From Pedobacter sp. PAMC26386 (lineage in GTDB: Bacteria > Bacteroidota > Bacteroidia > Sphingobacteriales > Sphingobacteriaceae), in contig CP060294.1 of assembly GCA_014302835.1 (NCBI GenBank), positions 2,295,067 to 2,319,066 of the forward strand: a stretch of DNA of 24,000 bases, written 5' to 3'. Positions 3,107 through 20,302 of this stretch are shown one piece after another. The notes beneath the pieces were generated by a model. The model did not search any database. It was not told the origin of the DNA and saw nothing but the letters and a program-made list of their open reading frames with translations. Numbering within the stretch: position 1 is the first letter of the stretch; each line of letters begins with the position of its first letter. The position numbers were made by a program, and so were the translations under genes.

Positions 3107-3589
3107 ATGAACTGCAAAACACAAACATTTATTGTTGGTCTGCTTGCTTTACCAATTTTATTGGTTAGCTGTGCCAGAACATCAAGGATGCATAACCTGG
3201 CGCTAGTCAAGAGTACTTATGAAGGAAAAACTTCAGAAGAAAATGGCAAAAATCTTGCAAACGCCCTTGCTCCAGATGCCCGATGGACAGAGGCCGCTGG
3301 CTTTCCATATGCAGGTACTTATATTGGAATTGACGAAATTACTAAAAATGTCTTTCAAAGATTAGCAACAGAATGGACTGATTATAAAGTACAAATAGAT
3401 GATTATATAGTTAGAGGAGATAAGGTTGTAGCCATAGGCACCTATAGCGGGATTTACAAAAAAACAGGTAAAAGTTTTAAAGCTAGAGTTGCACATGTCT
3501 GGGAACTTAAAGATGGTAAAATTATAAGTTTTGAGCAGTTCGTAGATAGTAAATCCCTGACTGATGCGATGGTAGCTACTGTTCATTAA
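3107..3589 (+). CDS. SnoaL-like / NTF2-fold lipoprotein
   Basis: A lipoprotein signal (LLVSC) is followed by about 130 aa with the pattern of ketosteroid-isomerase-like NTF2 proteins (...RVAHVWELKDGKIISFEQFVDS). Confidence 0.6.
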   Translation: MNCKTQTFIVGLLALPILLVSCARTSRMHNLALVKSTYEGKTSEENGKNLANALAPDARWTEAAGFPYAGTYIGIDEITKNVFQRLATEWTDYKVQIDDYIVRGDKVVAIGTYSGIYKKTGKSFKARVAHVWELKDGKIISFEQFVDSKSLTDAMVATVH

Positions 3590-4280
3590 TAATTCTATAA
3601 TCGGACGGTATGGAGAAGATGTCCTCATCAATTTTTATCTTTTTTACACGTATGGCCATCATGCCTATTCTCATGCCATTTTCCTGGGAATATATTTCCA
3701 GTGCACTGCCAGGTAATTGCCTCAAATATGCCTCCCTACCTCTATAATGTGAAGGAATTTTATCAGTATACCAAACAACAATCTCTACACCAGGTATTTT
3801 GGGATTTATAAAAATAGCCTTCCTGCAAGAAAACCCCAGAATACATTTTTCTTCATCTGAGAAACTGACTTTATAATCACCAGCACTAATAACTATTGCA
3901 ATATTGTCTTCCATTTCTTCCTCCACATAAGAAGCATCTCTGAATTTCCTGCTGGCTTCTTTCTTCCCGTGATTTAAAATGTAATAAAAAGCATCACCCT
4001 TCCTGCTTAAAGTAACCCGATCAGCTGATGACTTTTCTTCCGTCCGCATTTGCTGATCGGTCACATAACAAGTAAAATACCCCTTCTCTCTTTCGGCCAG
4101 CATCATATCTTTTATAAACCCCTCTAATAATTTACCCCCATCAGAATCATCAAGAGGTATATTCTGGATTAGTAAACCATACTTAATCTCCCATCCTTCC
4201 AATTTCTTTCTCGTCTGTTGTGAGCATACCCTGGAAGATTGCATGAGCAATAGCATCACTAAAATTTTAAGATTTTTCAT
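3576..4280 (-). CDS. GLPGLI-family-like secreted protein (divergent member)
   Basis: It has a signal peptide. The C-terminal pattern ILGFSCRKA...VVWYTDKIPSHYRGREAYLRQLPGSALEIY parallels the family signature ILGYxCxKA...AWYTxxIPxxxGPxxxxGLPGLILE. It lies 10 nt downstream of the anti-sigma gene. Confidence 0.5.
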   Translation of the reverse strand: MKNLKILVMLLLMQSSRVCSQQTRKKLEGWEIKYGLLIQNIPLDDSDGGKLLEGFIKDMMLAEREKGYFTCYVTDQQMRTEEKSSADRVTLSRKGDAFYYILNHGKKEASRKFRDASYVEEEMEDNIAIVISAGDYKVSFSDEEKCILGFSCRKAIFINPKIPGVEIVVWYTDKIPSHYRGREAYLRQLPGSALEIYSQENGMRIGMMAIRVKKIKIDEDIFSIPSDYRIINEQ

Positions 4281-4290
4281 TGACTAAACT

Positions 4291-4593
4291 TTATAAAACT
4301 GTATCCCCCATAACTCCTGTTTTTTGAACCAGCTTATCTTGAATAAGTCCTTTCAAATTATTCTTAAAGTCATCACTAAGGTTTATTCTTTTATCTTTCA
4401 AAAATTTCTGATTCCTCTTCATCATACAGTCAATCAGTAAACTTTGTTCCTGAAAAATGCGGCAAACCGGGCAATCTTTTAAATGAATCAGCAATCTGAT
4501 TTCATCCATCACTGCAATTCCTTCCGTATGCTTTCTCTCTACTAAAAAGATAGCTTTACGACAACAGCAGGTAATTTTTTTCAATGTATTCAT
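4291..4593 (-). CDS. Soluble zinc-finger (ZAS, RsrA-like) anti-sigma factor
   Basis: 100 aa with no hydrophobic TM stretch. The motif H37-LKD-C41-PV-C44 is an exact HxxxCxxC, and a CCC triplet ends at C11. It lies 6 nt downstream of an ECF sigma gene. Confidence 0.65.
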   Translation of the reverse strand: MNTLKKITCCCRKAIFLVERKHTEGIAVMDEIRLLIHLKDCPVCRIFQEQSLLIDCMMKRNQKFLKDKRINLSDDFKNNLKGLIQDKLVQKTGVMGDTVL

Positions 4594-4599
4594 ATGCTT

Positions 4600-5199
4600 T
4601 TATATCCAGTTTGTTTGAAGACAATCTCTAAGATTAAGTTTGGTACGGTGAATGATTACCCAAAAATTAGCATGCGTTATACATAAATTTTCACAAATTG
4701 CATAAGTATCTTCTTCATCCAGATATTTCATAGTAAAGACGGCAGACCATAATGGCGGAAGCTTAGACAGACATCCTCTTAAAATTTCATTAAATTCTTC
4801 ATTAATTAATAGTTCCTCTATATCAGCACTAAAACTTTGCGGAACATGTTCTTCTTTCCATTGTCCGCTTTCTTTTTCAAAAAAATTCTCCTGCTGTTTT
4901 TCAGCTTCATCCATTCTCATTTTTCCGTTCAACCCTGAAGAGTTTTTCCGATAGGTATCAATAATTTTGTTTTTAAGAATAGCAGTAAGCCAGGTAATTT
5001 CCTTACTTCTTCCTTCAAATTTATGAAGACTTTCAAGCGCTGCTAAAAAGGTTTCCTGAACAAGATCTCTTGCCGTTTCATCATCGCTAATTCTGGAAAG
5101 CGTATAACGATAAAGGAAATCTGAATAGTGATCAACCCATAAATGGGGATCGATGACTATCTTCTTTTTTGAGGGCGCCGTTTTTCTATCAATCTGCAT
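4600..5199 (-). CDS. ECF-type RNA polymerase sigma-70 family factor
   Basis: Region 2 is present (ARDLVQETFLAALESLHKFEGRSKEITWLTAILKNKIIDTYRK), as is a region 4 helix-turn-helix (LPPLWSAVFTMKYLDEEDTYAICENLCITHANFWVIIHRTKLNLRDCL). Confidence 0.85.
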   Translation of the reverse strand: MQIDRKTAPSKKKIVIDPHLWVDHYSDFLYRYTLSRISDDETARDLVQETFLAALESLHKFEGRSKEITWLTAILKNKIIDTYRKNSSGLNGKMRMDEAEKQQENFFEKESGQWKEEHVPQSFSADIEELLINEEFNEILRGCLSKLPPLWSAVFTMKYLDEEDTYAICENLCITHANFWVIIHRTKLNLRDCLQTNWI

Positions 5200-5231
5200 A
5201 AGTGATCAGGATGTATATAACTATCCCACTT

Positions 5232-5258
5232 AGTCGTGACACTTCACAGATCCTTACA
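5232..5258 (-). promoter_or_regulatory. Candidate ECF-type promoter of the sigma/anti-sigma/GLPGLI operon (TGTAAGG-N15-CGACT)
   Basis: The minus-sense sequence reads ATTGTAAGG-atctgtgaagtgtca-CGACTAAG and ends about 32 nt upstream of the sigma ATG (5199). The motif and spacing are identical to those of the plus-strand site at 5448-5474. Confidence 0.55.
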
Positions 5259-5447
5259 ATTATCTTACGCGATTTATTAATAATAATAAATTAACCTAGC
5301 ACCTCGTTTAATTATCTAATTAAATCCATAACTCAAAGAAACAAAACCTGGATTCCCTGTTCAGTTCATTCCAGGATCAATTTTCTCAAAACTTTCCAAA
5401 CAAGATTCTTCGCAGATTGATCAGGATCAATGTTTTTTCATTTCTGT

Positions 5448-5474
5448 TGTAAGGTTTGCCAATGAACTGCGACT
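5448..5474 (+). promoter_or_regulatory. Candidate ECF-type promoter of the nine-gene YHS-to-LysE array (TGTAAGG-N15-CGACT)
   Basis: The plus-sense sequence reads GTTGTAAGG-tttgccaatgaactg-CGACTTAA and ends 38 nt upstream of the ATG at 5513. It is the mirror partner of the site at 5232-5258. I found no TAnnTTTG housekeeping box in this spacer. Confidence 0.55.
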
Positions 5475-5512
5475 TAACACTAAAAAACAATCCACTTCAT
5501 CAATTCAAAATC

Positions 5513-5977
5513 ATGAAAAACTTATTTGCAGTTTTAGTATTATCGGTTATTAGTATTTGTAGTGTTTCGGCCCAGACAGCCAATCACAAAAATCAGTTCA
5601 ATGTAGATAAATCAGCCCTGGCAATAGAAGGTTATGACCCTGTAGCCTACTTTACATCAAGCAAGCCCATAAAAGGAAAAAAAGAATTTAACCTGACTGC
5701 AGAAGGAGTTACCTATCAATTTGCCAACGCCCAGAACAAAAATACATTCAAAGCCAATCCGGCAAAATATGAACCTCAATATGGTGGCTGGTGTGCTTAT
5801 GCAATGGGTGCAACAGGAGAAAAAGTAAGTGTTGACCCGGAGACTTACAAAATAATCAATGGGAAATTATTTCTATTCTACAATAGGTTTTTCAACAATA
5901 CGCTGAAAGACTGGAATAAAGACGAGTCCAATCTAAAAATCAACGCCGATAAAAGCTGGGCAAAGTTTAATCCATAA
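5513..5977 (+). CDS. Secreted YHS-domain (seleno)protein-family protein, Cys form, copy 1
   Basis: The signal peptide is MKNLFAVLVLSVISICSVSAQ. Family pattern: GYDPVAYF...KG...F...NP.KYEPQYGGWCAYAM...GKLFLFYN. The ORF track extends to a TTG at 5456, but that extension overlaps the candidate promoter and has no signal peptide. Confidence 0.75.
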   Translation: MKNLFAVLVLSVISICSVSAQTANHKNQFNVDKSALAIEGYDPVAYFTSSKPIKGKKEFNLTAEGVTYQFANAQNKNTFKANPAKYEPQYGGWCAYAMGATGEKVSVDPETYKIINGKLFLFYNRFFNNTLKDWNKDESNLKINADKSWAKFNP

Positions 5978-6010
5978 GCACTTAAATCATCGTCCATAAA
6001 TAAGAAAAAA

Positions 6011-6454
6011 ATGAAAAAATTATTAGTAGTAACTACTTTCCTCCTATTCGCAATTTTTAGTGCACGGGCTCAAAAATCAGAAATATTTGTCACCGGGAAT
6101 AAAGCAATCAGAGGTTATGATCCCATTGCATTTTTCAAAGAATCAAAACCGGTAAAAGGTGATGAAAAACTATCTTATAACTGGAAAGATGCGACCTGGC
6201 TATTTTCCACTCAGCAAAACTTAGATGACTTCAAAACGTCGCCAGAAAAGTATGCTCCACAATATGGTTGTTACTGTGCATATGGCACGGCCGATGGACA
6301 TAAGGCTCCAACCCAAACTGAGACCTGGACTATTGTTGGCGACAAACTCTATTTCAATTATAACAATAAGGTAAAACAGCTTTGGGATAAAAATCAGAAA
6401 GCACTAATTGAAAAGGCCGACCAACAGTGGATAGATATCAAAGAGAAACCCTAA
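6011..6454 (+). CDS. Secreted YHS-domain (seleno)protein-family protein, Cys form, copy 2
   Basis: It has a signal peptide. The sequence IRGYDPIAFF...KG...SPEKYAPQYGCYCAYG...DKLYFNYN marks it as a paralogue of the upstream gene. Confidence 0.75.
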   Translation: MKKLLVVTTFLLFAIFSARAQKSEIFVTGNKAIRGYDPIAFFKESKPVKGDEKLSYNWKDATWLFSTQQNLDDFKTSPEKYAPQYGCYCAYGTADGHKAPTQTETWTIVGDKLYFNYNNKVKQLWDKNQKALIEKADQQWIDIKEKP

Positions 6455-6465
6455 ACTAAATTATC

Positions 6466-7089
6466 TTGGAAATAGAAAAGCAATTAAAGTTCTTGCTGAC
6501 CATAGGATTCATCTTATGGTCAATGGGTATTAAAGCACAGGATACCGCCAAAATATCCATCACCACTAGTGTGGGTTTAGTACATATTACAGGTAAGCTG
6601 GGCAATACATTTAAATCGGCCGTTGCCTTTAATACAGGTTTAGAGCTTCAATTGAAACACAATTGGTTTATACAGGGCGAAATCAGTTTCAATACACTTG
6701 GTTATCATCAGCAAGTCAGGGACGCAGGTTCAACTTATCTTTTCACGAATGCAAACAGCTCTTTATTACAGGTAGGTGGTATAGGCGGAAAGGACTTTAC
6801 CATTCAAAAAGATAAATGGTTTATTGGTCTTTATTTAGGTGCAGGCTATCTCAATATTGGCGAGCCCAGAATTACTGTAGATGTTGCTAACAATACAGCC
6901 AGACAGGATGTGGTAAGAATGAGTAACATTTATGGAAAAGGAGGCAGCAGGATATCTTATAAGACTAAATCTCCATTTTTTCAAACAGTGTATCTGGACG
7001 CATCTTATTTTGCTTCACCCGTTAAACTGCAAGGTGAACACTTAAACGGAATTTCTCTTTTCATAGGGACTAAGTTCAGTCTTAAATAA
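6466..7089 (+). CDS. Small outer-membrane beta-barrel protein (porin-like, family unassigned)
   Basis: The signal peptide ends IKAQ. Alternating hydrophobic beta-strand patterns run through the protein, and the C-terminal strand is ...LFIGTKFSLK. The start is a TTG, because the next in-frame ATG would delete the signal peptide. Confidence 0.55.
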   Translation: MEIEKQLKFLLTIGFILWSMGIKAQDTAKISITTSVGLVHITGKLGNTFKSAVAFNTGLELQLKHNWFIQGEISFNTLGYHQQVRDAGSTYLFTNANSSLLQVGGIGGKDFTIQKDKWFIGLYLGAGYLNIGEPRITVDVANNTARQDVVRMSNIYGKGGSRISYKTKSPFFQTVYLDASYFASPVKLQGEHLNGISLFIGTKFSLK

Positions 7090-7095
7090 TAGAAT

Positions 7096-7764
7096 ATGAA
7101 TTATTTAAAAGCCTGTATCAAAGTATTAATTACAGCTGGTCCAACCAGAGAGCCAATTGATCCGGTACGCTACCTGACCAATCGTTCTTCCGGAAAAATG
7201 GGTTATGCAATTGCCGAAGTGTTTTTGAAAATAGGATTCGAAGTCATCCTGATTTCAGGCCCCGTTGAACTGAGTTTATATCATTCAAGACTTCGCTTAA
7301 TCAAGGTTGGTTCTGCACAGGAGATGTATAATGCAGCACAACAATATTTTGAAGCTACAGAAATTGCAGTATTTACAGCAGCTGTTGCTGATTACCGGCC
7401 AGCAGAAATAGCAGAATACAAACTCCAGAAAAAAGAAGATTCTTTCCAATTGCAAATGGTTAAAAATATAGATATCGCCTTTGAATTTGGGTTGAGAAAA
7501 ACTAAAAACCAAATCGCTATAGGATTTGCATTAGAAACAGATCATGAACTAGACAATGCAGTAAAGAAGATCTGGGCTAAGAATCTTGACCTGGTGATCT
7601 TAAATTCCACACAGGATGAATTTGCAACTTTTGGTTATGACACTAATAAGATTGCTATGATTTACCCGGATGCGTCAATTGTAAATTTCCCATTGAAACC
7701 AAAAATACAGGTTGCTAAAGATATCGTCATGGCAGCCATTAATCTAAAAGCTCAAAAGGTTTAA
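7096..7764 (+). CDS. coaB: Stand-alone CoaB-type phosphopantothenate--cysteine ligase-like protein (DFP C-terminal domain only)
   Basis: [40 protein letters not shown], KLQKK and MVKNIDI align by eye with the E. coli CoaBC ligase half ([49 protein letters not shown]). At 222 aa it has no flavin-dependent decarboxylase (CoaC) half. Confidence 0.8.
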   Translation: [222 protein letters not shown]

Positions 7765-7792
7765 AATTCAACATTGCTTTAATAAAAGAAAG

Positions 7793-8200
7793 ATGACAAT
7801 CAAACAAAAAAATATAACCTACTGGATTTTGAGACTCACCGCAGCATTCATCCTCCTCCAAACGCTATTTTTCAAATTTACAGGGGCAGAAGAATCTGTT
7901 TATATCTTTTCTACTCTTGGGATGGAGCCTTGGGGAAGAATTGGTACAGGAATCGTGGAACTTATAGCCGCTATACTTATCCTCATTCCCAGAACAACTG
8001 CTATTGGTGCAGTTATAGGCATGGGAATGATGAGTGGGGCATTATTATCTCACCTTACCGTACTTGGAATTGTGGTTAAAAATGATTCAGGAGCATTATT
8101 TATTTACGCATTAATCACCTTTATCTGCTGTTTTCTGCTCGCTTATGCTTTCCGTACACAGTTAATTCAGTTATTAAAAAAAGTAAACATCAAAATATGA
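7793..8200 (+). CDS. DoxX-family inner-membrane protein
   Basis: 135 aa with four hydrophobic helices. The N-terminal ILRLTAAFILLQTLFFKFTG and the IGTGIVELIAAILILIPRT pattern are typical of DoxX proteins. Confidence 0.65.
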   Translation: MTIKQKNITYWILRLTAAFILLQTLFFKFTGAEESVYIFSTLGMEPWGRIGTGIVELIAAILILIPRTTAIGAVIGMGMMSGALLSHLTVLGIVVKNDSGALFIYALITFICCFLLAYAFRTQLIQLLKKVNIKI

Positions 8201-8706
8201 CAATGCATTTAAATAAAACGATTTCATCTTTACTTGCACAACTTCAAAATTTGCTGGAAGAACTCTCAGATGAACAATATTGTATGCCAGTAATTGCGTT
8301 GTCCAATGCAACCCTTGGACAGCATACACGGCATATTGCAGAGTTTTACCTGGAGCTTGATCATGGTTACCAGAACGGTATCGTCAATTACGACAACCGA
8401 AAAAGAAATTATAAAATTGAGACTTTCAGAATTTTCACCATTCACCTGCTTCAGGAAATTTCAGCAGGCATGATTAAAGAAAATAAGGAACTCAAGCTTA
8501 TCGCCGACTATGGAACAGCCATAAATGACGAAATCTGTATAGTAGAAACCAATTATTTCAGAGAATTACTCTATAATCTGGAACATACTGTCCATCATAT
8601 GGCACTGATGAGAATTGGTGTGACGGCTGTCTCGGGTATCATATTGCCAGTAGATTTCGGCGTAGCTGCTTCTACTATAAAATTCAGAAAAACATGTGCA
8701 CAGTAA
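8197..8706 (+). CDS. DinB-fold (DinB_2-like) metal-dependent protein
   Basis: A four-helix-bundle-style sequence carries a His triad pattern: GQHTRHIAEF near the N-terminus and LEHTVHHMALM near the C-terminus. The start overlaps the DoxX stop (ATGA). Confidence 0.55.
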   Translation: MTMHLNKTISSLLAQLQNLLEELSDEQYCMPVIALSNATLGQHTRHIAEFYLELDHGYQNGIVNYDNRKRNYKIETFRIFTIHLLQEISAGMIKENKELKLIADYGTAINDEICIVETNYFRELLYNLEHTVHHMALMRIGVTAVSGIILPVDFGVAASTIKFRKTCAQ

Positions 8707-10481
8707 CCTTTATTCCTTCAAATAGTGGAATTCATATCACCTCTAACAGAGATGAACATGCTACACGAAGCCGGGCTATCCGTCCAAAAAAGTATGTAAC
8801 TAATGGATACGAATTGATCTATCCAAAAGATGAGGATGGTGGTGGCAGCTGGATTGCGACCAAAACCAATGGTGACGCTGCGGTCTTGTTAAACGGAGCC
8901 TTTATCAAACATATTCCCGCCCTGTCTTACCGTAAAAGCAGGGGTTTGATCTTTCTTGAAGTAATTCAGGCAAATGAGCCAGCTGGGCATTTTAAGACAA
9001 TCGATCTTGAAAACATTGCCCCTTTTACCCTGGTTCTTTATTCAGGTGGACAGCTACGTACCTTAAGATGGGATGGTCTTCGTAAACATAATCTATTGAT
9101 GGATGAAAGTATACCGCATATCTGGTCTTCCGTTACCCTTTACGAGCAAGAAATAGTAAATGATAGAGAACGCTGGTTTAAAACATGGATTGAATCTGAT
9201 CAGGAATTAAATAAAGATAAAATTCTTCACTTTCATCGCTTTGCTGGAAACGGTGACCCGGAAAATGATCTGATCATAGATAGAAAAAGTAAGCTGTCTA
9301 CAGTAAGTATTACTTCTGTTTTTGTATCCTCTTTCAGTACATGTTTAACTTACCTTGACCTGAAAGCTAATCAGAAATATGTTGTATCACTCAGTTGCAG
9401 GCAGGATAAGATCGTTACAGATGGCCAGTTATACAAGATCGGATGGGCAACAAAACGCTTGTTGATTAAGACTTTCAATTGGGAATACTGGCCTTTTCAA
9501 TTGGTCTATATTCCTATGTATGTATATTGGTTCTGGCTTAGTTTTAAAGCGCGTTCCTTTTTCTTTTTTAGTGCGGCAAATCCCCTGATTGAAAATAGTG
9601 GGTTTGCATTGGAAAGAAAAAGCAAAATCTATGATACGATTCCTAAAGCCTATTATCCGAAAACAACACTTATTGAGCCGGATATAGAAATAGCACAACT
9701 AGAAAAGATGCTGGAAAAAGATGGGTTTAATTTTCCTCTAATTGCAAAACCTGATATTGGAGAAAGGGGTGTAAAGGTAAAAATTTTGCATCATGCAGAG
9801 GATCTTAGAGCATACAAGACAGAAAGTAAAGTAGATTTTCTGATTCAGGATTTTATTGATTATGAACAGGAGGCAGGAATATTCTATTACCGGATTCCCG
9901 GAGAAAAAAGAGGCCATATTTCTGGTATCGTTGGAAAGGAATTTCTGGCAGTTACCGGTAATGGTAGGTCAACTATAATAACGTTACTTCAACAGGAAGA
10001 TCGTTATATTCTGCAATTACCCGTATTAAAAACGCTTTATGGCAATTTTCTCCAAACCATTTTACCTGAAGGTGTCCGCCATATACTAGTTCCTTATGGC
10101 AATCACAGTCGTGGTTCAAAATTTACAGATCTAAGCCATAAAATTAATGAAGAATTAGTAAACGCAATAGATCATATATGCAGCAAAGTTCCTGAGTTCT
10201 ATTTTGGCCGGCTGGACATCAAATTTAAAAACTGGGAAGATCTGTCTAAAGAAAAAAACTTCTCGATCATTGAGTTGAATGGTGCGGGGAGTGAGCCCAC
10301 ACATATCTATGATCCAAAACATTCTATCTTTTTTGCTTGGAAGGAAATCATCAGACATTGGGATTTACTTTTTAAGATCAGCAGAATGAATGCCCGTCGT
10401 AAGGGCTTAAGATTGATGGGAACAACTGAAGGAATGAAAATGCTGAGAGATCATACTGAACATTTAAAACTAATCGCTTAA
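8694..10481 (+). CDS. Fusion protein: N-terminal NRDE/TANGO2-family domain + hydrophobic linker + C-terminal ATP-grasp ligase
   Basis: The N-terminus reads MCTVTF...TSNRDEH...GGGSWIA...GDAAVLLNG, which parallels human TANGO2 (MC...ANRDE...GGTWLG...G..AALTN). The linker is WEYWPFQLVYIPMYVYWFWLSF. ATP-grasp hallmarks are FPLIAKPDIGERGVKVKIL, FLIQDFIDYEQEAGIFYY and IIELNGAGSEPTHIYD (E-x-N metal site). It is a single uninterrupted 595-codon frame. Confidence 0.7.
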   Translation: MCTVTFIPSNSGIHITSNRDEHATRSRAIRPKKYVTNGYELIYPKDEDGGGSWIATKTNGDAAVLLNGAFIKHIPALSYRKSRGLIFLEVIQANEPAGHFKTIDLENIAPFTLVLYSGGQLRTLRWDGLRKHNLLMDESIPHIWSSVTLYEQEIVNDRERWFKTWIESDQELNKDKILHFHRFAGNGDPENDLIIDRKSKLSTVSITSVFVSSFSTCLTYLDLKANQKYVVSLSCRQDKIVTDGQLYKIGWATKRLLIKTFNWEYWPFQLVYIPMYVYWFWLSFKARSFFFFSAANPLIENSGFALERKSKIYDTIPKAYYPKTTLIEPDIEIAQLEKMLEKDGFNFPLIAKPDIGERGVKVKILHHAEDLRAYKTESKVDFLIQDFIDYEQEAGIFYYRIPGEKRGHISGIVGKEFLAVTGNGRSTIITLLQQEDRYILQLPVLKTLYGNFLQTILPEGVRHILVPYGNHSRGSKFTDLSHKINEELVNAIDHICSKVPEFYFGRLDIKFKNWEDLSKEKNFSIIELNGAGSEPTHIYDPKHSIFFAWKEIIRHWDLLFKISRMNARRKGLRLMGTTEGMKMLRDHTEHLKLIA

Positions 10482-10482
10482 G

Positions 10483-11127
10483 ATGCCGGGACATAGTAAG
10501 ATAACATTATATGCATTGGTCATCAGCTTCTTAGGCTCTTTGCCCCTGGGTACATTAAATCTTAGTGTGGCTAATTTTGTATTTAAAGATAATATTCCGG
10601 GGGCAATTGCCTTTGCTATTGCGGCAATAGTTGTAGAGATTGTACTAGTCAGGATAGCTTTGGTTACCGTAAACAGACTGGAAGGTTTGAAGCGCTTTTA
10701 TAAACTGTTTAACATAGTGACCTGTTTAATCCTGATTGTGCTTTCTATGATTAGCCTCAACGCTGCCTACAATAGGTGTAAATTTGAGGCTGGTCTACCC
10801 TTTTCAAACCTGAATCCCTTTCTTTCGGGTTTGTTGCTCAGTGTGATCAATCCACTGCACCTGCCATTCTGGATGGGCTGGACAGCAGTACTGAAGTCTA
10901 AAAATATTTTAGACCATTCCCTGGGGTCTTATAATGTATATGTTGCTGGGATTGGGATAGGTACGTCGCTTGCTTTTCTAACTTATGGTACAATTGGACA
11001 TCTCCTCATTACCAATTTGCTGAACTATCAGATATTGCTGAACTGGCTGGTAGGGATTACGCTGTTACTCACAGCGTTGATACAATTTTATAAAACATTT
11101 TTTACTCCAATAAAAAAACTCATATAA
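10483..11127 (+). CDS. LysE/RhtB-type small-molecule exporter
   Basis: About six hydrophobic helices. The N-terminal FLGSLPLGTLN and the central LSVINPLHLPFW resemble LysE-family motifs. The start lies 1 nt after the stop of the fusion gene. Confidence 0.6.
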   Translation: MPGHSKITLYALVISFLGSLPLGTLNLSVANFVFKDNIPGAIAFAIAAIVVEIVLVRIALVTVNRLEGLKRFYKLFNIVTCLILIVLSMISLNAAYNRCKFEAGLPFSNLNPFLSGLLLSVINPLHLPFWMGWTAVLKSKNILDHSLGSYNVYVAGIGIGTSLAFLTYGTIGHLLITNLLNYQILLNWLVGITLLLTALIQFYKTFFTPIKKLI

Positions 11128-11152
11128 TATTATTTGAGATAAAATAAATCTA

Positions 11153-11197
11153 TTTTTCATCGGCATGCTTTTCGATGAAAAACATGCCGATGAAAAG
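11153..11197. terminator. Long hairpin between convergent genes (likely transcript-end structure for both)
   Basis: TTTTCATCGGCATG (11154-11167) pairs perfectly with CATGCCGATGAAAA (11183-11196). After one C.A mismatch, five further pairs close a 3-nt loop. On the minus strand a U-rich tract (auagauuuauuuuau) follows a few nt after the stem. There is no immediate U-run on the plus strand. Confidence 0.5.
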
Positions 11198-11212
11198 CAA
11201 ATTAACACACTA

Positions 11213-12865
11213 TTACCAACCTGGATTCTGTTTCAAATTCGGATTTAGTGCCAATTCCTGTGTAGGAAGCGGGTTTAAATATAATTTATCATTCCATGTT
11301 CGTGTAATTCCGGGATAAATCAGGATATAGCTATTCCCATCAACCACAATATTATTTACCTGACTAGCGGGATATTGTGCCTTAAGAGCTGCTGTAAGCT
11401 TCATGCCCAAGATGGTTTCCGGATTATTTATCAAAGTACCAGCGTGCCATCTGTGCATATCGTCAAAACGGAAACCCTCAGCACCAAGTTCTATTCTTCT
11501 TTCTCTCCGTATTTCATCAGTGAGTACAGGAAGACCAGGGAAATTTGATTTTGGATCTTTAACCAAGCTGGCCAGAACCATATGTGCCATCCCTACCCGA
11601 TCTCTCAGTTTGTTTATAGTCAGATCTAGTGTGACCTGTGTGCAAGTACCTAATTCTGCTTTGGCTTCAGCCGAGATCAGCAATTGTTCAGCATAACGGA
11701 AAATAAAAAAATCATAAACACTTTGATTTGCATTCCATGCAGCCTGACTGGACGACCGTCCTTTAATTGGCTGATAACCAGTTGAAGTAACCGAAGTCCC
11801 TATCCTTGGTAAGGTGATGAAATCACCATTCAAAAAATCAAATCCTCTGGTAGCTATTTGCTGAGCATAACGCGGATCACGATTAGCCACCTCGTTTTCA
11901 GGCGTATCATCTCCTTTATATAGAGGACTTAATGAAGTGGGTAAACCATCTGTACACAAAAAGGAACGAACAAAATCTTTACTGTAACCATCACTTGATT
12001 CTCCTAATGACCTATCAATATTGTTCATCAATATATTAGTTAAATACCGCATAGGCATTATAACTTCGGGATTACCCTTTAACTCATCCTGAATAAACAA
12101 ATTATAATAATCGGATTGTGGCTTTCCTGTACTGTAAAGATTAAACAGGCCCGACTTTATAATCTGATCGGCAGCGTCAGAAGCAGCTTGCAAAAAGGGA
12201 GTTTCATCTCCAACTCCAAAATACTTCCTGTAAGTCCCCTCCCACAAGCAAATCCTTGCTTTCAATGCCAATGCGCAATATTTGTTTAAACGCCCATCTG
12301 GTGCGCTTACTGGCAGATGATCAACTGCAAAATTCAAATCCTTCAAAACTGAATCCATCACTTGTTTATGAGCCATCCTTGAACCATATAAAACTGTTTT
12401 AGAAGTATCGGTAATATAAGTGTTTATATAAGGTACATCGCCGAAAGTCTTAACCTTCCTCCAAAAATCATTCGCTCTGAAAAACAAGGTCTCCCCAACG
12501 TATATATTTTTTGTATTGTCACTTATATTAGCTCTGGAGTAATTGGCCAGAAAAAAATTACAAGACCTGATGAAACTAAAATCCCAGCCCCCACCTGTAT
12601 TTGGTACTGTTGCTGTACCAGCCAGAAAGGAATTAATTTGCGTATTGGCCTTGTCATCAGAACCATTATCTGCCCTTAAAAAGGATTGAACAGGCAGTTG
12701 AGAATAATATTGATTACAATATAATTGTAAATCACTCTCGTTTTTAAAAAAGTTTTGCGGACTGATATCACTTAAGGGTGCGCGGTTAAGAAAACTGTCC
12801 TTTTTGCAGGAAGCAAAAACTGTAACAGCAAAAATTGTCAGATATATGATAAGTCTATTTTTCAT
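11213..12865 (-). CDS. RagB/SusD-family nutrient-binding outer-membrane lipoprotein
   Basis: The lipoprotein signal is ...VFASCKKD. TPR-like SusD architecture. The C-terminal ...YLNPLPTQELALNPNLKQNPGW is typical of SusD homologues. It lies 34 nt downstream of a SusC-type gene. Confidence 0.9.
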   Translation of the reverse strand: MKNRLIIYLTIFAVTVFASCKKDSFLNRAPLSDISPQNFFKNESDLQLYCNQYYSQLPVQSFLRADNGSDDKANTQINSFLAGTATVPNTGGGWDFSFIRSCNFFLANYSRANISDNTKNIYVGETLFFRANDFWRKVKTFGDVPYINTYITDTSKTVLYGSRMAHKQVMDSVLKDLNFAVDHLPVSAPDGRLNKYCALALKARICLWEGTYRKYFGVGDETPFLQAASDAADQIIKSGLFNLYSTGKPQSDYYNLFIQDELKGNPEVIMPMRYLTNILMNNIDRSLGESSDGYSKDFVRSFLCTDGLPTSLSPLYKGDDTPENEVANRDPRYAQQIATRGFDFLNGDFITLPRIGTSVTSTGYQPIKGRSSSQAAWNANQSVYDFFIFRYAEQLLISAEAKAELGTCTQVTLDLTINKLRDRVGMAHMVLASLVKDPKSNFPGLPVLTDEIRRERRIELGAEGFRFDDMHRWHAGTLINNPETILGMKLTAALKAQYPASQVNNIVVDGNSYILIYPGITRTWNDKLYLNPLPTQELALNPNLKQNPGW

Positions 12866-12899
12866 TTTTCAACAGATTAAAATTTAATAAAAACTAATA

Positions 12900-15800
12900 C
12901 TATAATGTAGCCTGCAAGCCAACAGAAACTGATCTGTTGATAGGATAAGTCCTATAATTCCCGCCAGTGGTGATGATTTCCGGGTCATATCCTTTAAACA
13001 AAGAAGTAATAGTAAATAAATTAGCACCAGTAACATATACTCTTACTTTTTGCATTTTCAGTCTGCTGATCAATTGCTTTGGCAGGGAATAACCTAATGT
13101 TAACTGTTTGATTCTCGCATAAGCTGCATTTTGCAGATACTTAGTCTGTGTCTGTTTATTGCCCTGACCACTAAACCTTGGACGTGCAAAATAAGCAGTT
13201 GGATTCTCAGGAGTCCAATAATCAGTAGTAGATTTATATGGCAAATCATATTCACTGTTGTTAAAAGAATAAAATACATTATCATTTGGTGCATAATCAG
13301 CTTTTAATACACCCTGAACAAAAGCAGCAAAGTCAAAATCTTTATAGGATAGATTCAGGTTAAAACCGAACCTGTAACGTGGAGTGCTATTTCCTATAAT
13401 TTTCTTATCTCCTGGATTAGCCAATGTATTATTCCCATAACCAATCTTCCCATCATGGTTCAAGTCCGCATACTTAACGTCTCCAGCCAGCCATTTATAG
13501 CCTGCCAACGCCGAATTATCCATACTGGCAGCTTCAGCATCAGTTTGATAAAAACCCAGAGTTTGATAGCCCCAGATATTCCCCAGTTTCTCTCCTGGAT
13601 AATGATCGTCTATATTAAATGTAGGATTTAATGCATACTTAGTAATCGTACTAGAGGCATCTGAGACACCCAGGGTTACATTATAAAGTAACTGATTATC
13701 AAATACGCGGTCTCTCCATCCGACGCTAAATTCCCATCCCTTTGTACGCAGACTAGCTTGATTCAACAATGGCGCCCCGGTTCCTAATACTGCCGGCAAT
13801 TTCTGACCGTCCACAAGCATATCTTTTGTATCTGTAATAAAATAATCAAAACTACCACTTAGCTTATTATTTAATAAGGTATAATCAAGTCCAATATTTT
13901 TAGTCTGAACTTTTTCCCAGGTGAGTGTTGTACTAATCAAACCCGGAGTGTTGACCACAATACCGGGTTGGTTATTAAACAAATAACCCACAGTACCAGT
14001 ACCCTGAGTAGCAATATATGGATATTGCGCTCCAGCAGAGATCGCATCCGACGGGGTTTGCTGATTAGGTAACTGTCCATAAGAGGCTCTTATCTTCAAT
14101 TCATTAATCGTGTTTTTAGCACCCTGCATAAAAGATTCTTCGGTAATATTCCATCCTGCAGATACTGAAGGAGAGAATGCATAACGGTGATCTGCCGGAA
14201 ACCTCGATGTACCATCATATCTCCCATTAATCTCCAATAAATATCTTTTATCATAGATGTAATTAAGTCTGAAAAAAGTACCTACCAAAGCGTATTCTGT
14301 TTCTGTACCACCTACCACAGGTTTGGTATCAGTATTTGTTCCAATAGCTGGTAGGTAAGGATCAATCAGGCTTTTAGCCAGAGAGTTACTTAGCTGATAA
14401 TGCTGATATTCTTGATTATAACCCAAAAGTGCCTTGAAATAATGTTTCTTATTAAAGGTATTTTCATAGGTAGTATAGATATTCAAAGCATTATAATTGT
14501 TATTCCTCCTGTTTTCATTTACTTGTGAAGGGTTTGTCCAGGGAAATACACCTAATAAAACACCGTCTACTCCATATTCATTGAATGGAATTACATTTGA
14601 TTTTTGGAACTGCGAAAAGGCATTCCACGTATAATCAGCGGTAACTGTAAGATGATCCACCGGTTTTAAGATCACACGACCTGTTGTCCAGAAATCATTC
14701 TGAGAATTAATATCTCTGCCAGACAGATTAATCACCGCAACCGGGTTAGTATAACTTCCCTGTCCAGAATAATGTCCATCCGGATGATAAACAGGCATAA
14801 GTGGTCTTAAATCACCAGGGATCCAGGCTCCACCCTGATTAATAATCGTATTTGCGGCCTGGTTATTATTTGTATTTGTCATCGACATGTTCAAATTAAA
14901 GGTGATCCATGAAGTAACATCTGAATTGATTTTTAGACTTGGCGTATATCGTTTATAAATCTGGTTAGCTACTTTCTCAAGACCGTCTTGTTTAAAATAA
15001 CCTAAACTGGCTGAGTAGGTAGTCTTTCCTTCCCCACCAGATACGGATAAATTATGCTGTTGCTGAGGCGCCCAGCCAGGATAGAGTACTTTAATCCAGT
15101 CAGTATTTCCTACATACCTGTATAATTTTGGATTGCCAGGATCTGGATAGACGGCTGGATTATTTGCGGGATCTCTAAAAAAAGCATCGGCCATAATAGA
15201 ATCTCTTGCGGTAAAAGGACTGCCAGAAACAGAACCGCCAGTCCGGCTTCCTGTTCGCTGGGCATCATTAAACATTTTAATATACTCCTGCGAATTAAGA
15301 TAAGCAGGCATTATAGTAGGTCTTGAAGTGGTATATGAACCAGAGTAACTGATTTGTGTCACACCCTTTTTACCGGTTTTGGTAGTAATTAAAATTACCC
15401 CATAGGCTGCTCTGCTTCCGTAAATCGCTGAAGAAGCTGCATCTTTTAAAACTGTTACACTGGCTACATCATTCGGATCTATCAAGTTTGGATCACGTTG
15501 TATACCATCTACCAAAACTAGTGGTCTGGAACTTGAATTAGAGCCAATTGTAGTATATCCCCTGATGTTAAATGTAGCACTTGTGCCAGGCTGCCCATTA
15601 TTAACATTTACATTCAAATTGGGAATAAGGCCATTCAAGCCATCCCCAAGGTTCACAAGCGGCCTGCTTTCCAGTTTTTCACTCCCTATGGTTGCAATTG
15701 CACCAGTTAAATTAACTTTCTTCTGTGTGCCATAACCTACTACTACCACTTCACTCAACTTACCTTCATCGGCTTCTAGTCTGACTATCATTTCTATACC

Positions 15801-16385
15801 TGGAGTTACAGATAGCTCTTTAGGTATAAAACCGATAGAGGAAAAGATAAGTATTGCTTCTTTATCAGGAACAGTAATTTTAAATTTACCATTGGCATCT
15901 GCTACAACTACGGTTTTGCTGCCTTTTACTTTCACAGTAACACCAGGTATGGGTTTATTACTATCATCATTCACCTGTCCAATAATCACTATTGGATTAA
16001 TCGTGTTTTTAATTGCAGGAATTATCATCATCTCCTGTATTATAATTGTTTTATCGACAATTTTATAAATCAAGGGCAGGTTCTTAAAACACTCCTTTAA
16101 TGCCTGATCAATGGAGGCATTATTAAGCTGTACACTATTTATGCTTTTGTTTCTGATATCTTTTGAGTCATAAAAAAAAACATATCCAGTCTGTTTATGG
16201 ATCAATTCAAAAACTTTTTTAACAGCTATTTTTCTTTCATTCAGAATGATATTCTGACTATATCCTTCAGCGCTTACCTGTACAAGGGTGATCAGGATTA
16301 ACAGACTAGTTAATTTCATATACAGAAATATTTTTTTGGGTAACCACATTCTATATGCAGCCAAAAAGAAAGCATTTATTTTCAT
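12900..16385 (-). CDS. SusC/RagA-family TonB-dependent transporter with N-terminal STN signalling domain
   Basis: An STN-like segment is present (VFELIHKQTGYVFFYDSKDI...IDQALKECFKNLPLIYKIVDKTIIIQE). A carboxypeptidase-regulatory-like domain follows (GQVNDDSNKPIPGVTVKVKGSK...ADANGKFKI). The SusC signature VVVVGYGTQKKVNLTGA, the plug and a 22-strand barrel length are all present. An alternative start is at Met23 (16319). Confidence 0.9.
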   Translation of the reverse strand: MKINAFFLAAYRMWLPKKIFLYMKLTSLLILITLVQVSAEGYSQNIILNERKIAVKKVFELIHKQTGYVFFYDSKDIRNKSINSVQLNNASIDQALKECFKNLPLIYKIVDKTIIIQEMMIIPAIKNTINPIVIIGQVNDDSNKPIPGVTVKVKGSKTVVVADANGKFKITVPDKEAILIFSSIGFIPKELSVTPGIEMIVRLEADEGKLSEVVVVGYGTQKKVNLTGAIATIGSEKLESRPLVNLGDGLNGLIPNLNVNVNNGQPGTSATFNIRGYTTIGSNSSSRPLVLVDGIQRDPNLIDPNDVASVTVLKDAASSAIYGSRAAYGVILITTKTGKKGVTQISYSGSYTTSRPTIMPAYLNSQEYIKMFNDAQRTGSRTGGSVSGSPFTARDSIMADAFFRDPANNPAVYPDPGNPKLYRYVGNTDWIKVLYPGWAPQQQHNLSVSGGEGKTTYSASLGYFKQDGLEKVANQIYKRYTPSLKINSDVTSWITFNLNMSMTNTNNNQAANTIINQGGAWIPGDLRPLMPVYHPDGHYSGQGSYTNPVAVINLSGRDINSQNDFWTTGRVILKPVDHLTVTADYTWNAFSQFQKSNVIPFNEYGVDGVLLGVFPWTNPSQVNENRRNNNYNALNIYTTYENTFNKKHYFKALLGYNQEYQHYQLSNSLAKSLIDPYLPAIGTNTDTKPVVGGTETEYALVGTFFRLNYIYDKRYLLEINGRYDGTSRFPADHRYAFSPSVSAGWNITEESFMQGAKNTINELKIRASYGQLPNQQTPSDAISAGAQYPYIATQGTGTVGYLFNNQPGIVVNTPGLISTTLTWEKVQTKNIGLDYTLLNNKLSGSFDYFITDTKDMLVDGQKLPAVLGTGAPLLNQASLRTKGWEFSVGWRDRVFDNQLLYNVTLGVSDASSTITKYALNPTFNIDDHYPGEKLGNIWGYQTLGFYQTDAEAASMDNSALAGYKWLAGDVKYADLNHDGKIGYGNNTLANPGDKKIIGNSTPRYRFGFNLNLSYKDFDFAAFVQGVLKADYAPNDNVFYSFNNSEYDLPYKSTTDYWTPENPTAYFARPRFSGQGNKQTQTKYLQNAAYARIKQLTLGYSLPKQLISRLKMQKVRVYVTGANLFTITSLFKGYDPEIITTGGNYRTYPINRSVSVGLQATL

Positions 16386-16413
16386 AGTTTTGCTTGGTAT
16401 TAGGTTAATACTC
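16385..16413 (+). promoter_or_regulatory. Plus-strand TAnnTTTG box (TAGTTTTG) plus conserved block, antisense to and abutting the susC-like start
   Basis: TAGTTTTG at 16385-16392 matches the Bacteroidota -7 consensus TAnnTTTG. The following CTTGGTATTAGGTTAATACTC is conserved with 23563-23590 at the second locus. Confidence 0.35.
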
Positions 16414-16505
16414 GGTTAGGTCTTAATCTTGTTTTTCCGTTTTTTCCGGAAAGGTTAATCCTGATACTTTTGCGCAGGAGTGGTCCAAGACTTCTGCGCT
16501 TTTTC
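16397..16505 (+). ncRNA. Candidate cis-antisense small RNA opposite the susC-like 5-prime leader (DonS-like arrangement)
   Basis: A predicted start lies a few nt after the TAGTTTTG box. The candidate ends at the hairpin GCGCAGGAGT-ggtccaag-ACTTCTGCGC (16472-16499, 10 bp including one G.U), followed by TTTTT on the plus strand only. On the minus strand the G.U becomes a C.A mismatch and the tail is A-rich. No plus-strand protein gene lies here to be terminated. Confidence 0.3.
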
Positions 16506-16592
16506 AGACTATAACCTCGGGGCGGGTTAACTGTGTAGTCTTCTCTTCATTTTTTCCTTTCTTTTAATTAAATGTTTAATTGATGCTTAAAA

Positions 16593-17720
16593 TTATGGCG
16601 TCACAATTATTGTCCTGCCGCTTATCCTGAAATGGATATGTTTAAAGTTTAGAATCTCCTGTAATTGTGTTGCATTGATATTCCTGGGGATTTCTCCGGT
16701 AAATTCTCTAGCCGGTATTTTACCTTCATATTTTACATCTACATCATACCACCTGGAAAGCTGCCTCATCACGGTTTCTATACTCGCATCTTTAAAGTTA
16801 AAAAAACCGTTTTTCCAAGCAATTTCATCTTCTATATCCACTTCTGATTTATGGAAAACACCATTGTTCAGCTGTGCTTGTTCACCTGGTTTAAGAATAG
16901 TATTATTATCTTTTGATAATACCTTTACACTTCCTTTTAAAAGGGTGGTTTTAACTTCTTCTTCATTATCATAAGCATTAATATTAAAATGCGTACCTAA
17001 TACTTCAACCGTCTGTTTTTCCGAAACTACTCGAAAAGGTGTATTTTTATGATGTGCAACTTCAAAATAAGCTTCCCCGCTAATTTCAACACGGCGCTCA
17101 GTCCCGCTAAATGCAACTGGATATTTAATAGAAGAGGCGGCATTCAGCCACACTTTAGTACCATCGGATAAGATCAATTGATAACTACCTCCACGAGGGG
17201 TAGTTACTGTATTATATAATTTTCGCGATGCTTTAGCAAAATCTGCGGAACCAGAGTAAGCAATCTGCCCTTCTGCTGTCTTATCTATAATTTTATCTCC
17301 CTGACTTGCCAGTGTACCATTCTTTGTTCCATTCAATACAATGGTTTGTCCATCATCCAGTGTGAGTACGGCCTTATTTCCGCCGGGTAAAAGATCTTTA
17401 GAAATATTCTTGCGCTGAACTTGTTCGTGTTGTTCTGTTTTTTTGTTAAACAACAAATAGCTGGTGCCTGCTGCGAGGACGAAAATTAATGAGGCTGCTA
17501 TTTTCATAGCTGGCCAAAATCTTCTTTCCTTTCGCTTCTGAATCTGATTGATTAAATCTGTCAGACTCTCTTTTTGCGCATCTTCTATCTTTTGATAAGG
17601 TATTTTGGCTGAAGAATCCTCATAAGTTAAATACCAGGTTTCTACTAAAGTTTTTTCTTCTTCCGTAACCATACCTGTTTGGTATCTATCCAGTAGATTC
17701 TGAACATCTTTCAGTTGCAT
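16593..17720 (-). CDS. FecR-family transmembrane anti-sigma factor / sensor
   Basis: It has an N-terminal cytoplasmic domain, a single TM (IAASLIFVLAAGTSYLLF), a periplasmic FecR domain and a C-terminal WKNGFFNFKDASIETVMRQLSRWYDVDVKY module typical of Bacteroidota FecR proteins. Confidence 0.9.
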   Translation of the reverse strand: MQLKDVQNLLDRYQTGMVTEEEKTLVETWYLTYEDSSAKIPYQKIEDAQKESLTDLINQIQKRKERRFWPAMKIAASLIFVLAAGTSYLLFNKKTEQHEQVQRKNISKDLLPGGNKAVLTLDDGQTIVLNGTKNGTLASQGDKIIDKTAEGQIAYSGSADFAKASRKLYNTVTTPRGGSYQLILSDGTKVWLNAASSIKYPVAFSGTERRVEISGEAYFEVAHHKNTPFRVVSEKQTVEVLGTHFNINAYDNEEEVKTTLLKGSVKVLSKDNNTILKPGEQAQLNNGVFHKSEVDIEDEIAWKNGFFNFKDASIETVMRQLSRWYDVDVKYEGKIPAREFTGEIPRNINATQLQEILNFKHIHFRISGRTIIVTP

Positions 17721-17801
17721 AATAATAGAAGTATGAATGAGTACTTATTACGCTACATAACAACCGATCCGGGATCAGGGAGTAGAAGAAAAATGAAATA
17801 A

Positions 17802-18371
17802 TTAGAAAAAAAGCATAAAGTGGTAGACACCTAGTTTTACACGCAGTATTTTAAGCGAATTATTGACTTGCTTCTTAACTGTAAGTGAACTTATACCCAG
17901 TTTTTCCGCAATTTCCAGATGTGAAAGTTGTTCGTTTCTGCTCATTTCAAATATCAGGCGCATTTGCGGCGGCAACATAGAAATTCCGGCTTCCACGATC
18001 GCGATTAATTGTTTAAGCCGTATTTCCTCATCAGCTGCAGGTACCTTATTTTCGCTAAATCTCTGAAAAGAGGAAATGTAATCGGCTCTGACCTTGCTGT
18101 GCTTAAAAAAGTTTAAAATTCTATTTCTTACTGAAGTATATAGATAGGCAGGAAGATTCGGGCTTAAGCTATTTGATTCTCTATTATTCCATATCCAGGT
18201 AAAAAGTTCCTGCAAGATATCTTTTACCTCCTCATGATCTGATAACCTTCTATAAGCATGGCTATACAAAATCCCATAGTATCTATTGTGAATTTCTGTA
18301 AAAGCAGTCAAATCTCCCCTTTTAAGGAGCATCGTTAGTTCAACATCACTGTATGAATTATATACAGTCAT
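17802..18371 (-). CDS. ECF sigma factor (Bacteroidota expansion-type sigma-70 family)
   Basis: FTEIHNRYYGILYSHAYRRL...VKDILQELFTWIWNNR...YLYTSVRNRILNFFKH covers region 2. LPPQMRLIFEMSRNEQLSHLEIAEKLGISSLTVKKQVNNSLKILR covers region 4. Confidence 0.9.
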   Translation of the reverse strand: MTVYNSYSDVELTMLLKRGDLTAFTEIHNRYYGILYSHAYRRLSDHEEVKDILQELFTWIWNNRESNSLSPNLPAYLYTSVRNRILNFFKHSKVRADYISSFQRFSENKVPAADEEIRLKQLIAIVEAGISMLPPQMRLIFEMSRNEQLSHLEIAEKLGISSLTVKKQVNNSLKILRVKLGVYHFMLFF

Positions 18372-18452
18372 AAAAAAATTAGGTTATAATGGTTCAGATT
18401 GATATTTGATTACACTAAATTAAAGCAATAACCTGTAGCATAAATTTTACAT

Positions 18453-18519: not shown

Positions 18520-18562
18520 CATAAGAGATTACACGATTAGTTACTACACTGACACATAAGGG

Positions 18563-20254: not shown

Positions 20255-20302
20255 TTGAATATGATTGTCTTTTAATGCTGTGTTTATTTTACGGTTAACG
20301 GG

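Follow-up and report, generated by a model that had tools for sequence, protein, structure and literature searches.

In Pedobacter sp. PAMC26386, a gene for an extracytoplasmic function (ECF) sigma factor and an array of genes beginning with two YHS-domain genes point away from each other, and the spacer between them carries two mirror-image copies of one bipartite sequence element. The locus raises the question of whether these copies are promoters and, if so, which sigma factor would recognize them and which genes they would drive. We analyzed a 24-kb stretch of the genome that contains the locus (hereafter the window; all window searches cover these 24 kb only), together with loci of homologous sigma factors. 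Based on sequence comparison, it is highly probable that the two sites are the cognate promoters of the adjacent ECF sigma factor, which would be released by oxidants and would drive both its own operon and the divergent one.

Paired sites in the divergent spacer

The exact pattern TTGTAAGG-N15-CGACT occurs twice in the window, at 5232-5259 on the minus strand and at 5447-5474 on the plus strand. Both copies face outward inside the 313-nt spacer that separates the ATG of the sigma gene (5199, minus strand) from the ATG at 5513, and they agree in all 13 specified positions and in their 15-nt spacing, as a preliminary description of this DNA had stated. The minus-strand site reads ATTGTAAGG-ATCTGTGAAGTGTCA-CGACTAAG (5259 to 5229), and the plus-strand site reads GTTGTAAGG-TTTGCCAATGAACTG-CGACTTAA (5446-5477). 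An exact match appeared in none of 100 dinucleotide-preserving shuffles of the window, and allowing up to two mismatches returned no window site beyond the same two. When the window was scanned with a position weight matrix (PWM) built from 116 homologous sites (see below), only two places scored above 8 bits, namely the sigma-side site (32.1 bits) and the YHS-side site (23.7 bits). The lower score of the latter is explained by a T in CGACTTAA at the place where 111 of the 116 sites have an A after CGAC-N. Since CGACTTAA stands where the consensus is CGACTAA, the YHS-side site is probably the weaker of the two promoters.

The predicted ECF-type promoter of the sigma operon (P_sig) spans 5229..5259 on the minus strand, with TTGTAAGG as the -35 element (5259 to 5252) and CGACTAAG as the -10 element (5236 to 5229). 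Its counterpart for the divergent operon (P_yhs) spans 5447..5477 on the plus strand, with TTGTAAGG at 5447-5454 and CGACTTAA at 5470-5477. The distances to the two ATG codons, previously given as 32 nt (sigma) and 38 nt (5513), hold with the T of CGACT as the starting point; from the ends of the 8-mers, the figures are 29 and 35 nt. Transcription of the sigma operon is predicted to start at 5222..5224 (minus strand), leaving a 5' untranslated region of about 23-25 nt, and that of the YHS operon at 5482..5485 (plus strand), where A5483 corresponds to position +34 of the aligned motif and the ATG at 5513 follows after about 30 nt. The plus-strand motif overlaps two further candidate start codons, TTG 5456 and ATG 5462, and the predicted transcription start lies 3' of both. 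Because of this position (about 5483), and because the alignment with orthologous YHS proteins begins at the Met of 5513, the first residue of the signal peptide, the first YHS gene is assigned the start codon at 5513, in line with the earlier proposal.

Conservation of the motif across homologous sigma loci

A total of 80 loci with sigma homologues were retrieved from a genome collection via the sigma alignment and oriented on the sigma gene (647.5 kb, searched on both strands). Fifty-nine closer loci are of the Sphingobacteriia/Chitinophagia type, and those numbered L055-L080 are more distant and mostly of the Flavobacteriia type. GTAAGG-N15-CGAC was found in 116 copies in the 80 loci, compared with 0.8 in block shuffles. 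The spacing is rigid, with 116 sites at 15 nt and 0-1 site at each other spacing within 11-20 nt. Positions that had not been part of the search are also kept: a T precedes GTAAGG in 116/116 sites and WTT follows it, a C precedes CGAC in 70/116, A-A stands two and three bases after CGAC (111/116 and 112/116, respectively), an A is found at +34, 6-8 nt past CGACTAA, in 93/116, and an AT-rich tract lies 5' of the motif. The resulting working consensus is TTGTAAGGWTT-N11-CCGACTAA. Classical ECF promoters have the geometry AAC-N16-CGT, to which GTAAG-N16-CGAC corresponds. The suggestion of a bipartite ECF-type promoter with a CG-containing -10 element is supported by 116 sites at a rigid 15-nt spacing and by the match to a published Neisseria consensus described below.

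The placement of the sites is also that of promoters. Only two of the 116 lie inside long open reading frames (ORFs; at least 120 aa), though such ORFs cover 78% of the bases, and an ATG-initiated ORF begins 2-153 nt downstream in the orientation of the motif for all but one of 118 sites (116 in the loci and two in the window). These downstream ORFs were grouped by clustering. The sigma gene itself stands behind 47 sites (46 in the loci and one in the window), with the same motif at the same spacing, which is consistent with the proposed autoregulation of the sigma factor. The other sites precede genes for DUF1223 thioredoxin-like proteins (23 sites), small Met/Lys-rich secreted peptides (21 sites), AhpC/TSA (5 sites), 433-aa lipoproteins (5 sites), DUF417 (4 sites), YHS proteins (3 sites, two in the loci and one in the window), MsrB (3 sites; L023, L024 and L044), and DoxX, cytochrome b561, DM13 and DsbD-thioredoxin (one site each). 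Judged by the motif, the genes behind these other sites would form a coherent redox set. A divergent pair like that of the window is present in 33 of the 59 closer loci and the sigma-side site alone in 15, and an additional site follows the anti-sigma gene in 29 of the 80 loci.

The 21 small secreted proteins (64-125 aa) are rich in Met, Lys and Asp (e.g. ...SDTTKMDKMKMDKKMDKKMKMKKKDKM...), and their genes stand immediately downstream of the same motif, in most cases next to the end of the anti-sigma gene (L001:4833-5100, L012:3021-, L030:5559- and 18 other Mucilaginibacter/Pedobacter loci). A possible role for these proteins is as sacrificial, methionine-rich scavengers of oxidants. No gene of this kind is present in the window.

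The divergent operon of the window has syntenic counterparts. The YHS-YHS-DoxX-169aa-TANGO2 module is present in L010, L038, L046 and L051, and partly in L052, where the end of the locus cuts the module. DoxX is conserved in these five loci, the DinB-like 169-aa gene is conserved beside the DoxX and TANGO2 genes, and the TANGO2 fusion is kept in the syntenic loci. The paired sites are found in orthologous spacers as well, a point that the preliminary description had raised: L010 has both of them, and the only invariant blocks in a four-way alignment of orthologous spacers are TGTAAGG and CGAC.AA. L051 has a sigma-side site and a CGTC variant before the YHS gene, while in L041 a YHS gene with its own site follows the anti-sigma gene. 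The module is split in L038: separate copies of the motif precede the YHS genes, the DinB-like/TANGO2 genes and DoxX, and a LysE homologue is placed after the YHS genes. The motif is kept before YHS, DinB-like and DoxX genes even where the gene order is shuffled. Together with the 33 divergent pairs, the sites before syntenic YHS genes support the earlier claim that the sigma factor drives the divergent array; the array itself, previously counted as nine genes, consists of eight.

The third base of the -10 core varies by clade. Most Sphingobacteriia/Chitinophagia loci have CGAC; Flavobacteriia-type loci and Neisseria have CGTC; Proteobacteria have both, and mixtures occasionally occur within a single locus. 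CGTC versions were observed in L030 (3843, minus strand), L037 (3874), L038 (4888 and 8074), L051 (3878, minus strand) and L055-L080.

The sigma operon and its predicted anti-sigma factor

The sigma gene (4600..5199, minus strand) encodes a 199-aa ECF sigma factor with the Pfam domains Sigma70_r2 and r4_2, which gives generic ECF matches only when compared with solved structures. Its sequence agrees at 100% identity with a database protein of Pedobacter sp. PAMC26386. Six nt downstream lies a gene (4291..4593, minus strand) for a protein of 100 aa, predicted to be a small cytoplasmic zinc anti-sigma factor of the ZAS (zinc-binding anti-sigma) type, and after another 10 nt comes a gene for a GLPGLI-family-like secreted protein of 234 aa (3576..4280, minus strand; TIGR01200 45.9 bits, below the cut-off of 50). 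The PWM detects no promoter-like site before the GLPGLI-like gene, which is the probable third gene of the sigma operon and would be co-transcribed with the other two.

The translated anti-sigma gene of the window contains the pattern C-x26-H-x3-C-x2-C (C11, H37, C41 and C44), and a small ORF with this pattern follows the sigma gene in all but 3 of the 80 loci. The four Cys/His residues are the only invariant columns in an alignment of 25 anti-sigma sequences, three proteobacterial members included, and Pfam zf-HC2 is matched by 15 of the 25 relatives (best E 1.7e-07).

Relationship to known sigma/anti-sigma systems

Among the best-scoring specific NCBIfam models for the window sigma factor is TIGR02943, with 135.6 bits against a cut-off of 162.2; Bacteroidota relatives also remain below this cut-off (152.6 bits in L010 and 159.4 bits in L008). 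Six proteobacterial homologues, 32-35% identical to the window sigma, score 230-249 bits. Because of this difference, the window sigma appears to represent a sister clade of TIGR02943 (the original ECF group 13) rather than a strict member. In the 2021 re-classification, the original ECF13 became part of ECF293 (PMC7826278). The window module would belong to a known oxidative-stress sigma/anti-sigma family, linked to the members in Neisseria and Haemophilus indirectly, via TIGR02943 relatives. With the Acinetobacter homologue as query, no Neisseria entry was among the 120 matches listed.

Five of the six proteobacterial TIGR02943 sigma loci have GTAAG(G/A/C)-N15/16-CG(A/T)C before neighbouring operons (Oceanimonas L085, Acinetobacter L083 and L087, Sulfuriferula L086 and Sphingopyxis L081). 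The Oceanimonas sigma gene sits in a BufA1-MNIO-DUF2063-DoxX-sigma-zf-HC2 operon, a layout described for Neisseria and Haemophilus. The individual sites include TTGTAAGA-N16-CGACCAAG before BufA1, TGTAAGG-N15-CGTCTA before a thioredoxin-CcdA operon, a divergent pair in Acinetobacter L087 (TGTAAGA-N15-CGACTAA and GTAATA-N15-CGTCTAA), TGTAAGG-N15-CGACTAC in Sulfuriferula and two sites in Sphingopyxis. These 'bufferin'-type modules (BufA1-MNIO-DUF2063-DoxX) have the same promoter class as the window but different cargo genes, and their sixth -35 base and third -10 base vary more (GTAAGA, GTAAGC, CGTC/CGAC), with one 16-nt spacer.

The closest published description of the motif is that for sigmaE of Neisseria meningitidis and N. 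gonorrhoeae. Hopman et al. deduced its consensus from 24 rpoE-operon and msrAB promoters: -35 GTMAGBWTT ('GTAAGGTT'), 12-13 nt, -10 CGTCTAAH and an AT-rich upstream element, with a conserved A six nt past the -10 element that is the mapped start of gonococcal msrAB (PMC2893595). The Pedobacter form, GTAAGGWTT, 12 nt and CGACTAA, deviates from this consensus only at the third base of the -10 core, and the A at the mapped or predicted start and the AT-rich upstream tract are common to both. The gene for the ZAS anti-sigma factor MseR (NMB2145) lies directly 3' of the Neisseria sigmaE gene (Ecf, NMB2144), its Cys-x26-His-x3-Cys-x2-Cys register is the same as in the window, and the operon is autoregulated. 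The Neisseria regulon comprises the DoxX-containing rpoE operon and msrAB (PMC3240639); DoxX is present in the window, and a methionine sulfoxide reductase gene (msrB) stands behind the motif in L023, L024 and L044. The two systems differ in that one is from Betaproteobacteria and the other from Bacteroidota, and in that the window target operon has no BufA, MNIO or DUF2063 gene and instead encodes YHS proteins, a DinB-like protein and a TANGO2/ATP-grasp fusion.

Two further systems show partial likeness. SigmaR/RsrA of Streptomyces coelicolor (ECF12), the paradigm of redox-sensing ZAS proteins, likewise has an autoregulated sigma gene and a thiol-oxidation regulon, and its sigma factor is of a different group from that of the window. 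The sigmaR promoter consensus, GGAAT-N18-GTT, is unlike the window motif. In RsrA, the residues C11, H37, C41 and C44 are numerically identical to those of the window protein (numbering per PMC2893595). RpoE2/HrsE of Haemophilus influenzae, assigned to ECF group 13 by its authors, also has a small ZAS peptide as anti-sigma factor. HOCl and H2O2 induce this system, and its targets are envelope repair genes, among them msrAB and a DoxX operon, a set that overlaps only in part with that of the window; the passages searched report no promoter consensus for RpoE2 (PMC7907618).

Competing explanations and proposed mechanism

The sequences themselves show the motif, its statistics, where it lies and how far it is conserved, along with the gene content and the anti-sigma signature. 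Several points weigh against the view that the sites are cognate promoters of the adjacent, oxidant-released sigma factor. Sigma dependence and start sites are deduced from homology, and the inducing signal and co-transcription are predictions as well. The window sigma scores below the trusted cut-off of TIGR02943 and is tied to the Neisseria and Haemophilus proteins through TIGR02943 relatives rather than by direct comparison, and its -10 core is CGAC where the Neisseria consensus has CGTC. The window anti-sigma protein itself has no zf-HC2 match at E 0.1, and the profile of its family matches no anti-sigma factor (RsrA, ChrR) among solved structures, so that the assignment rests on position, pattern and family alignment. 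On the YHS side, the T at the position where 111/116 sites have A means that the promoter may be weak. Finally, the sigma factor has at least one relative in its own genome, which bears on the first of the alternatives.

This alternative accepts the sites as ECF promoters and has them read mainly, or also, by a paralogous sigma factor, with specificity set by the release from the anti-sigma factor and not by the motif. Pedobacter sp. PAMC26386 indeed encodes at least one paralogous sigma factor, P0051, with 56% identity to that of the window (P0001), and both belong to the sigma/ZAS family. In Mucilaginibacter rubeus CGMCC 1.15913, two modules (L008 and L044, one beside DUF1223 and the other beside MsrB) both have TGTAAGG-N15-CGAC promoters, and the motif is nearly constant across sigma factors that are only 50-60% identical. 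Since paralogues exist and the motif is common to them, the sequence does not tell which paralogue uses which site. However, the motif lies beside the sigma gene in 48 of the 59 closer loci and beside the adjacent divergent gene in 33 of them, which is the usual signature of a cognate, autoregulated module, and we regard predominant or shared use by a paralogue as unlikely.

Two explanations that deny promoter function fare worse. The repeated element could be an operator for a DNA-binding transcription factor, such as a repressor site, given that two inverted copies in one spacer might be two operators and that a separate palindrome, TGATCAGGATCA, lies at 5418-5429. However, the element is bipartite and lacks symmetry, its spacer is fixed at 15 nt, it is always aimed at a downstream gene whose start codon is 2-153 nt away, and it co-occurs with the sigma/anti-sigma pair and not with any conserved transcription factor. 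It also agrees with a published promoter consensus that derives from sigmaE-dependent genes and is tied to a mapped start, and related loci do not conserve the palindrome, so an operator is a very improbable reading. As for a functionless chance duplication in an AT-rich spacer, the pattern was chosen after the sequence had been read, and the statistic within the window alone therefore overstates its significance. Against this stand the 116 copies in homologous loci where 0.8 were expected, with conserved flanks and placement, by which chance is already refuted; we give this explanation practically no credence.

If the two sites are the cognate promoters of the adjacent sigma factor, regulation could proceed as follows. 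At rest, the zinc-loaded 100-aa anti-sigma factor (C11/H37/C41/C44) would sequester the sigma factor. A thiol-reactive oxidant would oxidize the anti-sigma cysteines, zinc would be lost, and the sigma factor would be set free; hypochlorite and peroxide are the signals in the related Haemophilus system. The holoenzyme would then recognize TGTAAGG as the -35 element and start about 6-8 nt past each CGAC(T)AA. Leftward from about 5222-5224 (minus strand), the genes for the sigma factor, the anti-sigma factor and the GLPGLI-like protein would be transcribed, giving positive feedback through the sigma factor and then delayed negative feedback, by re-capture, through the anti-sigma factor. Rightward from about 5482-5485 (plus strand), transcription would cover the eight-gene operon beginning with the ATG at 5513, which is presumptively an envelope defence module against thiol and methionine oxidation, with the YHS proteins in the periplasm.

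Sites within the sigma gene in Flavobacteriia-type loci

In L055-L080, no such motif was found upstream of the sigma gene. A de novo count of bipartite k-mers detected TGTAA-N17-CGTC in 20 of the 21 loci L060-L080. In these loci, TGTAAG-N16-CGTC-N-AA lies within the sigma coding sequence near its 3' end, 72-90 nt ahead of the anti-sigma ATG (e.g. L062:4464-4500 and L070:4464-4500). Among 20 unique sequences, the third codon base is invariant in just four places (TGT, AAG, an NCG codon and TGG), and identity at the other third positions is 35-90%. The TGG codon for Trp has no alternative, and the amino acid encoded by the NCG codon varies (Pro, Thr, Ser or Ala). This pattern indicates selection on the DNA itself and suggests an internal sigma-dependent promoter that would drive only the anti-sigma gene. 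The sigmaE-dependent rseA promoter inside E. coli rpoE is a precedent for such an arrangement.

A broader scenario, which we offer tentatively and consider possible rather than probable, is that Bacteroidota have expanded the ECF13/TIGR02943 sister clade into several paralogous modules per genome with one promoter code, the window module being an undescribed envelope redox unit. Under this scenario, the function of the module might be to synthesize, export or recycle a small protectant of the thiol type, and in Flavobacteriia-type loci the promoter might have moved inside the sigma coding sequence, where it would drive only the anti-sigma gene. If all paralogues keep one promoter code, insulation between them must lie in the anti-sigma factors.

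Other signals in and around the spacer

The Bacteroidetes sigmaA -7 element TAnnTTTG (with -33 TTTG) was not found on either strand in 5200-5512. Since the spacer has no recognizable housekeeping -7 element, basal expression of the sigma gene may rely on leakage from its own promoter. Several Flavobacteriia-type relatives without the ECF motif 5' of the sigma gene show TAnnTTTG-type sequences there. An Rfam scan of 5100-5650 returned no meaningful match. Over 3400-11400, a scan for E. coli-type sigma-70 promoters gave matches at or below the shuffle expectation, and a scan for intrinsic terminators found none.

The perfect palindrome TGATCAGGATCA (5418-5429, plus strand) lies about 18 nt 5' of the YHS-side -35 element. 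Its 10-mer TGATCAGGAT is repeated just 5' of the sigma ATG (5203-5212), and CAGGATCAAT is repeated at 5372 (5372-5384). Near-matches to the palindrome are not clearly enriched in the window (their count was reached in 7 of 100 shuffles), and TGATCAGGATCA was not found in related spacers or loci. As a candidate second operator, it was set aside as unsupported by enrichment or conservation; it could be a chance palindrome or a strain-specific operator.

Genes of the divergent operon and the neighbouring region

The array at 5513-11127 (plus strand) comprises eight closely packed or overlapping ORFs, with no terminator-like site and no further PWM promoter site inside it. The first gene (5513..5977) encodes a member of the YHS-domain (seleno)protein family with a signal peptide (NF041384, 137.7 bits; Pfam YHS), and the second (6011..6454) another member of this family (NF041384, 148.7 bits). 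They are followed by genes for a possible outer-membrane beta-barrel protein of 207 aa (6466..7089; weak Pfam OMP_b-brl, E 0.005, below cut-off), a stand-alone CoaB-like protein of the phosphopantothenate-cysteine ligase family (7096..7764; Pfam DFP, 210 bits, below NCBIfam equivalog cut-offs) and a DoxX-family membrane protein (7793..8200; Pfam DoxX_2 and DoxX). The next gene (8197..8706) encodes the 169-aa protein, whose N-terminus faintly resembles DinB/mycothiol-S-transferase (DinB_2, E 0.029; MST, E 0.044; both below cut-off). It is overlapped (8694 vs 8706) by the gene for a 595-aa fusion of a TANGO2/NRDE-like part with N-terminal Met-Cys and an ATP-grasp ligase-like part (8694..10481; Pfam TANGO2, 38.5 bits; RimK, 21.8 bits). 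A LysE-type translocator (10483..11127; Pfam LysE, 27 bits) is the product of the last gene. The OMP-like and CoaB-like genes are absent from the syntenic loci, the CoaB-like gene being near the TANGO2 fusion in PAMC26386 only. Sequence searches returned no solved-structure relative of the YHS protein or the TANGO2 fusion, and a literature search for TANGO2 plus ATP-grasp in bacteria returned no paper from the collection covered.

Further downstream, at 11213-23557 (minus strand), two pairs of large ORFs (1161 + 550 aa and 1084 + 563 aa) lie on either side of a 375-aa ORF and a second small sigma-like ORF (189 aa, 17802-18371). In ORF sizes and general sequence appearance, this region is reminiscent of SusC/SusD pairs accompanied by an ECF/FecR-type regulator. 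No site was detected with the promoter matrix in 11213-23557, which would therefore be a separate regulatory unit.

Biological significance

The locus reveals no new kind of regulatory mechanism; both the promoter and the sigma/anti-sigma class are already known. What it adds is that different phyla share a promoter code described in Neisseria, apart from a drift of one base in the -10 element, and that paralogues with the same motif raise the question of how modules are insulated from each other. The motif TGTAAGGWTT-N11-CCGACTAA is ready to be used for regulon mapping of a widespread, unstudied sigma/anti-sigma family in soil Bacteroidota. Moreover, genes of unknown function, namely those for YHS (seleno)proteins, DoxX, the DinB-like protein and the TANGO2/ATP-grasp fusion, would be tied to an oxidative/thiol-stress response. 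The cargo operon and the expansion of paralogues are the parts that could repay experiments.

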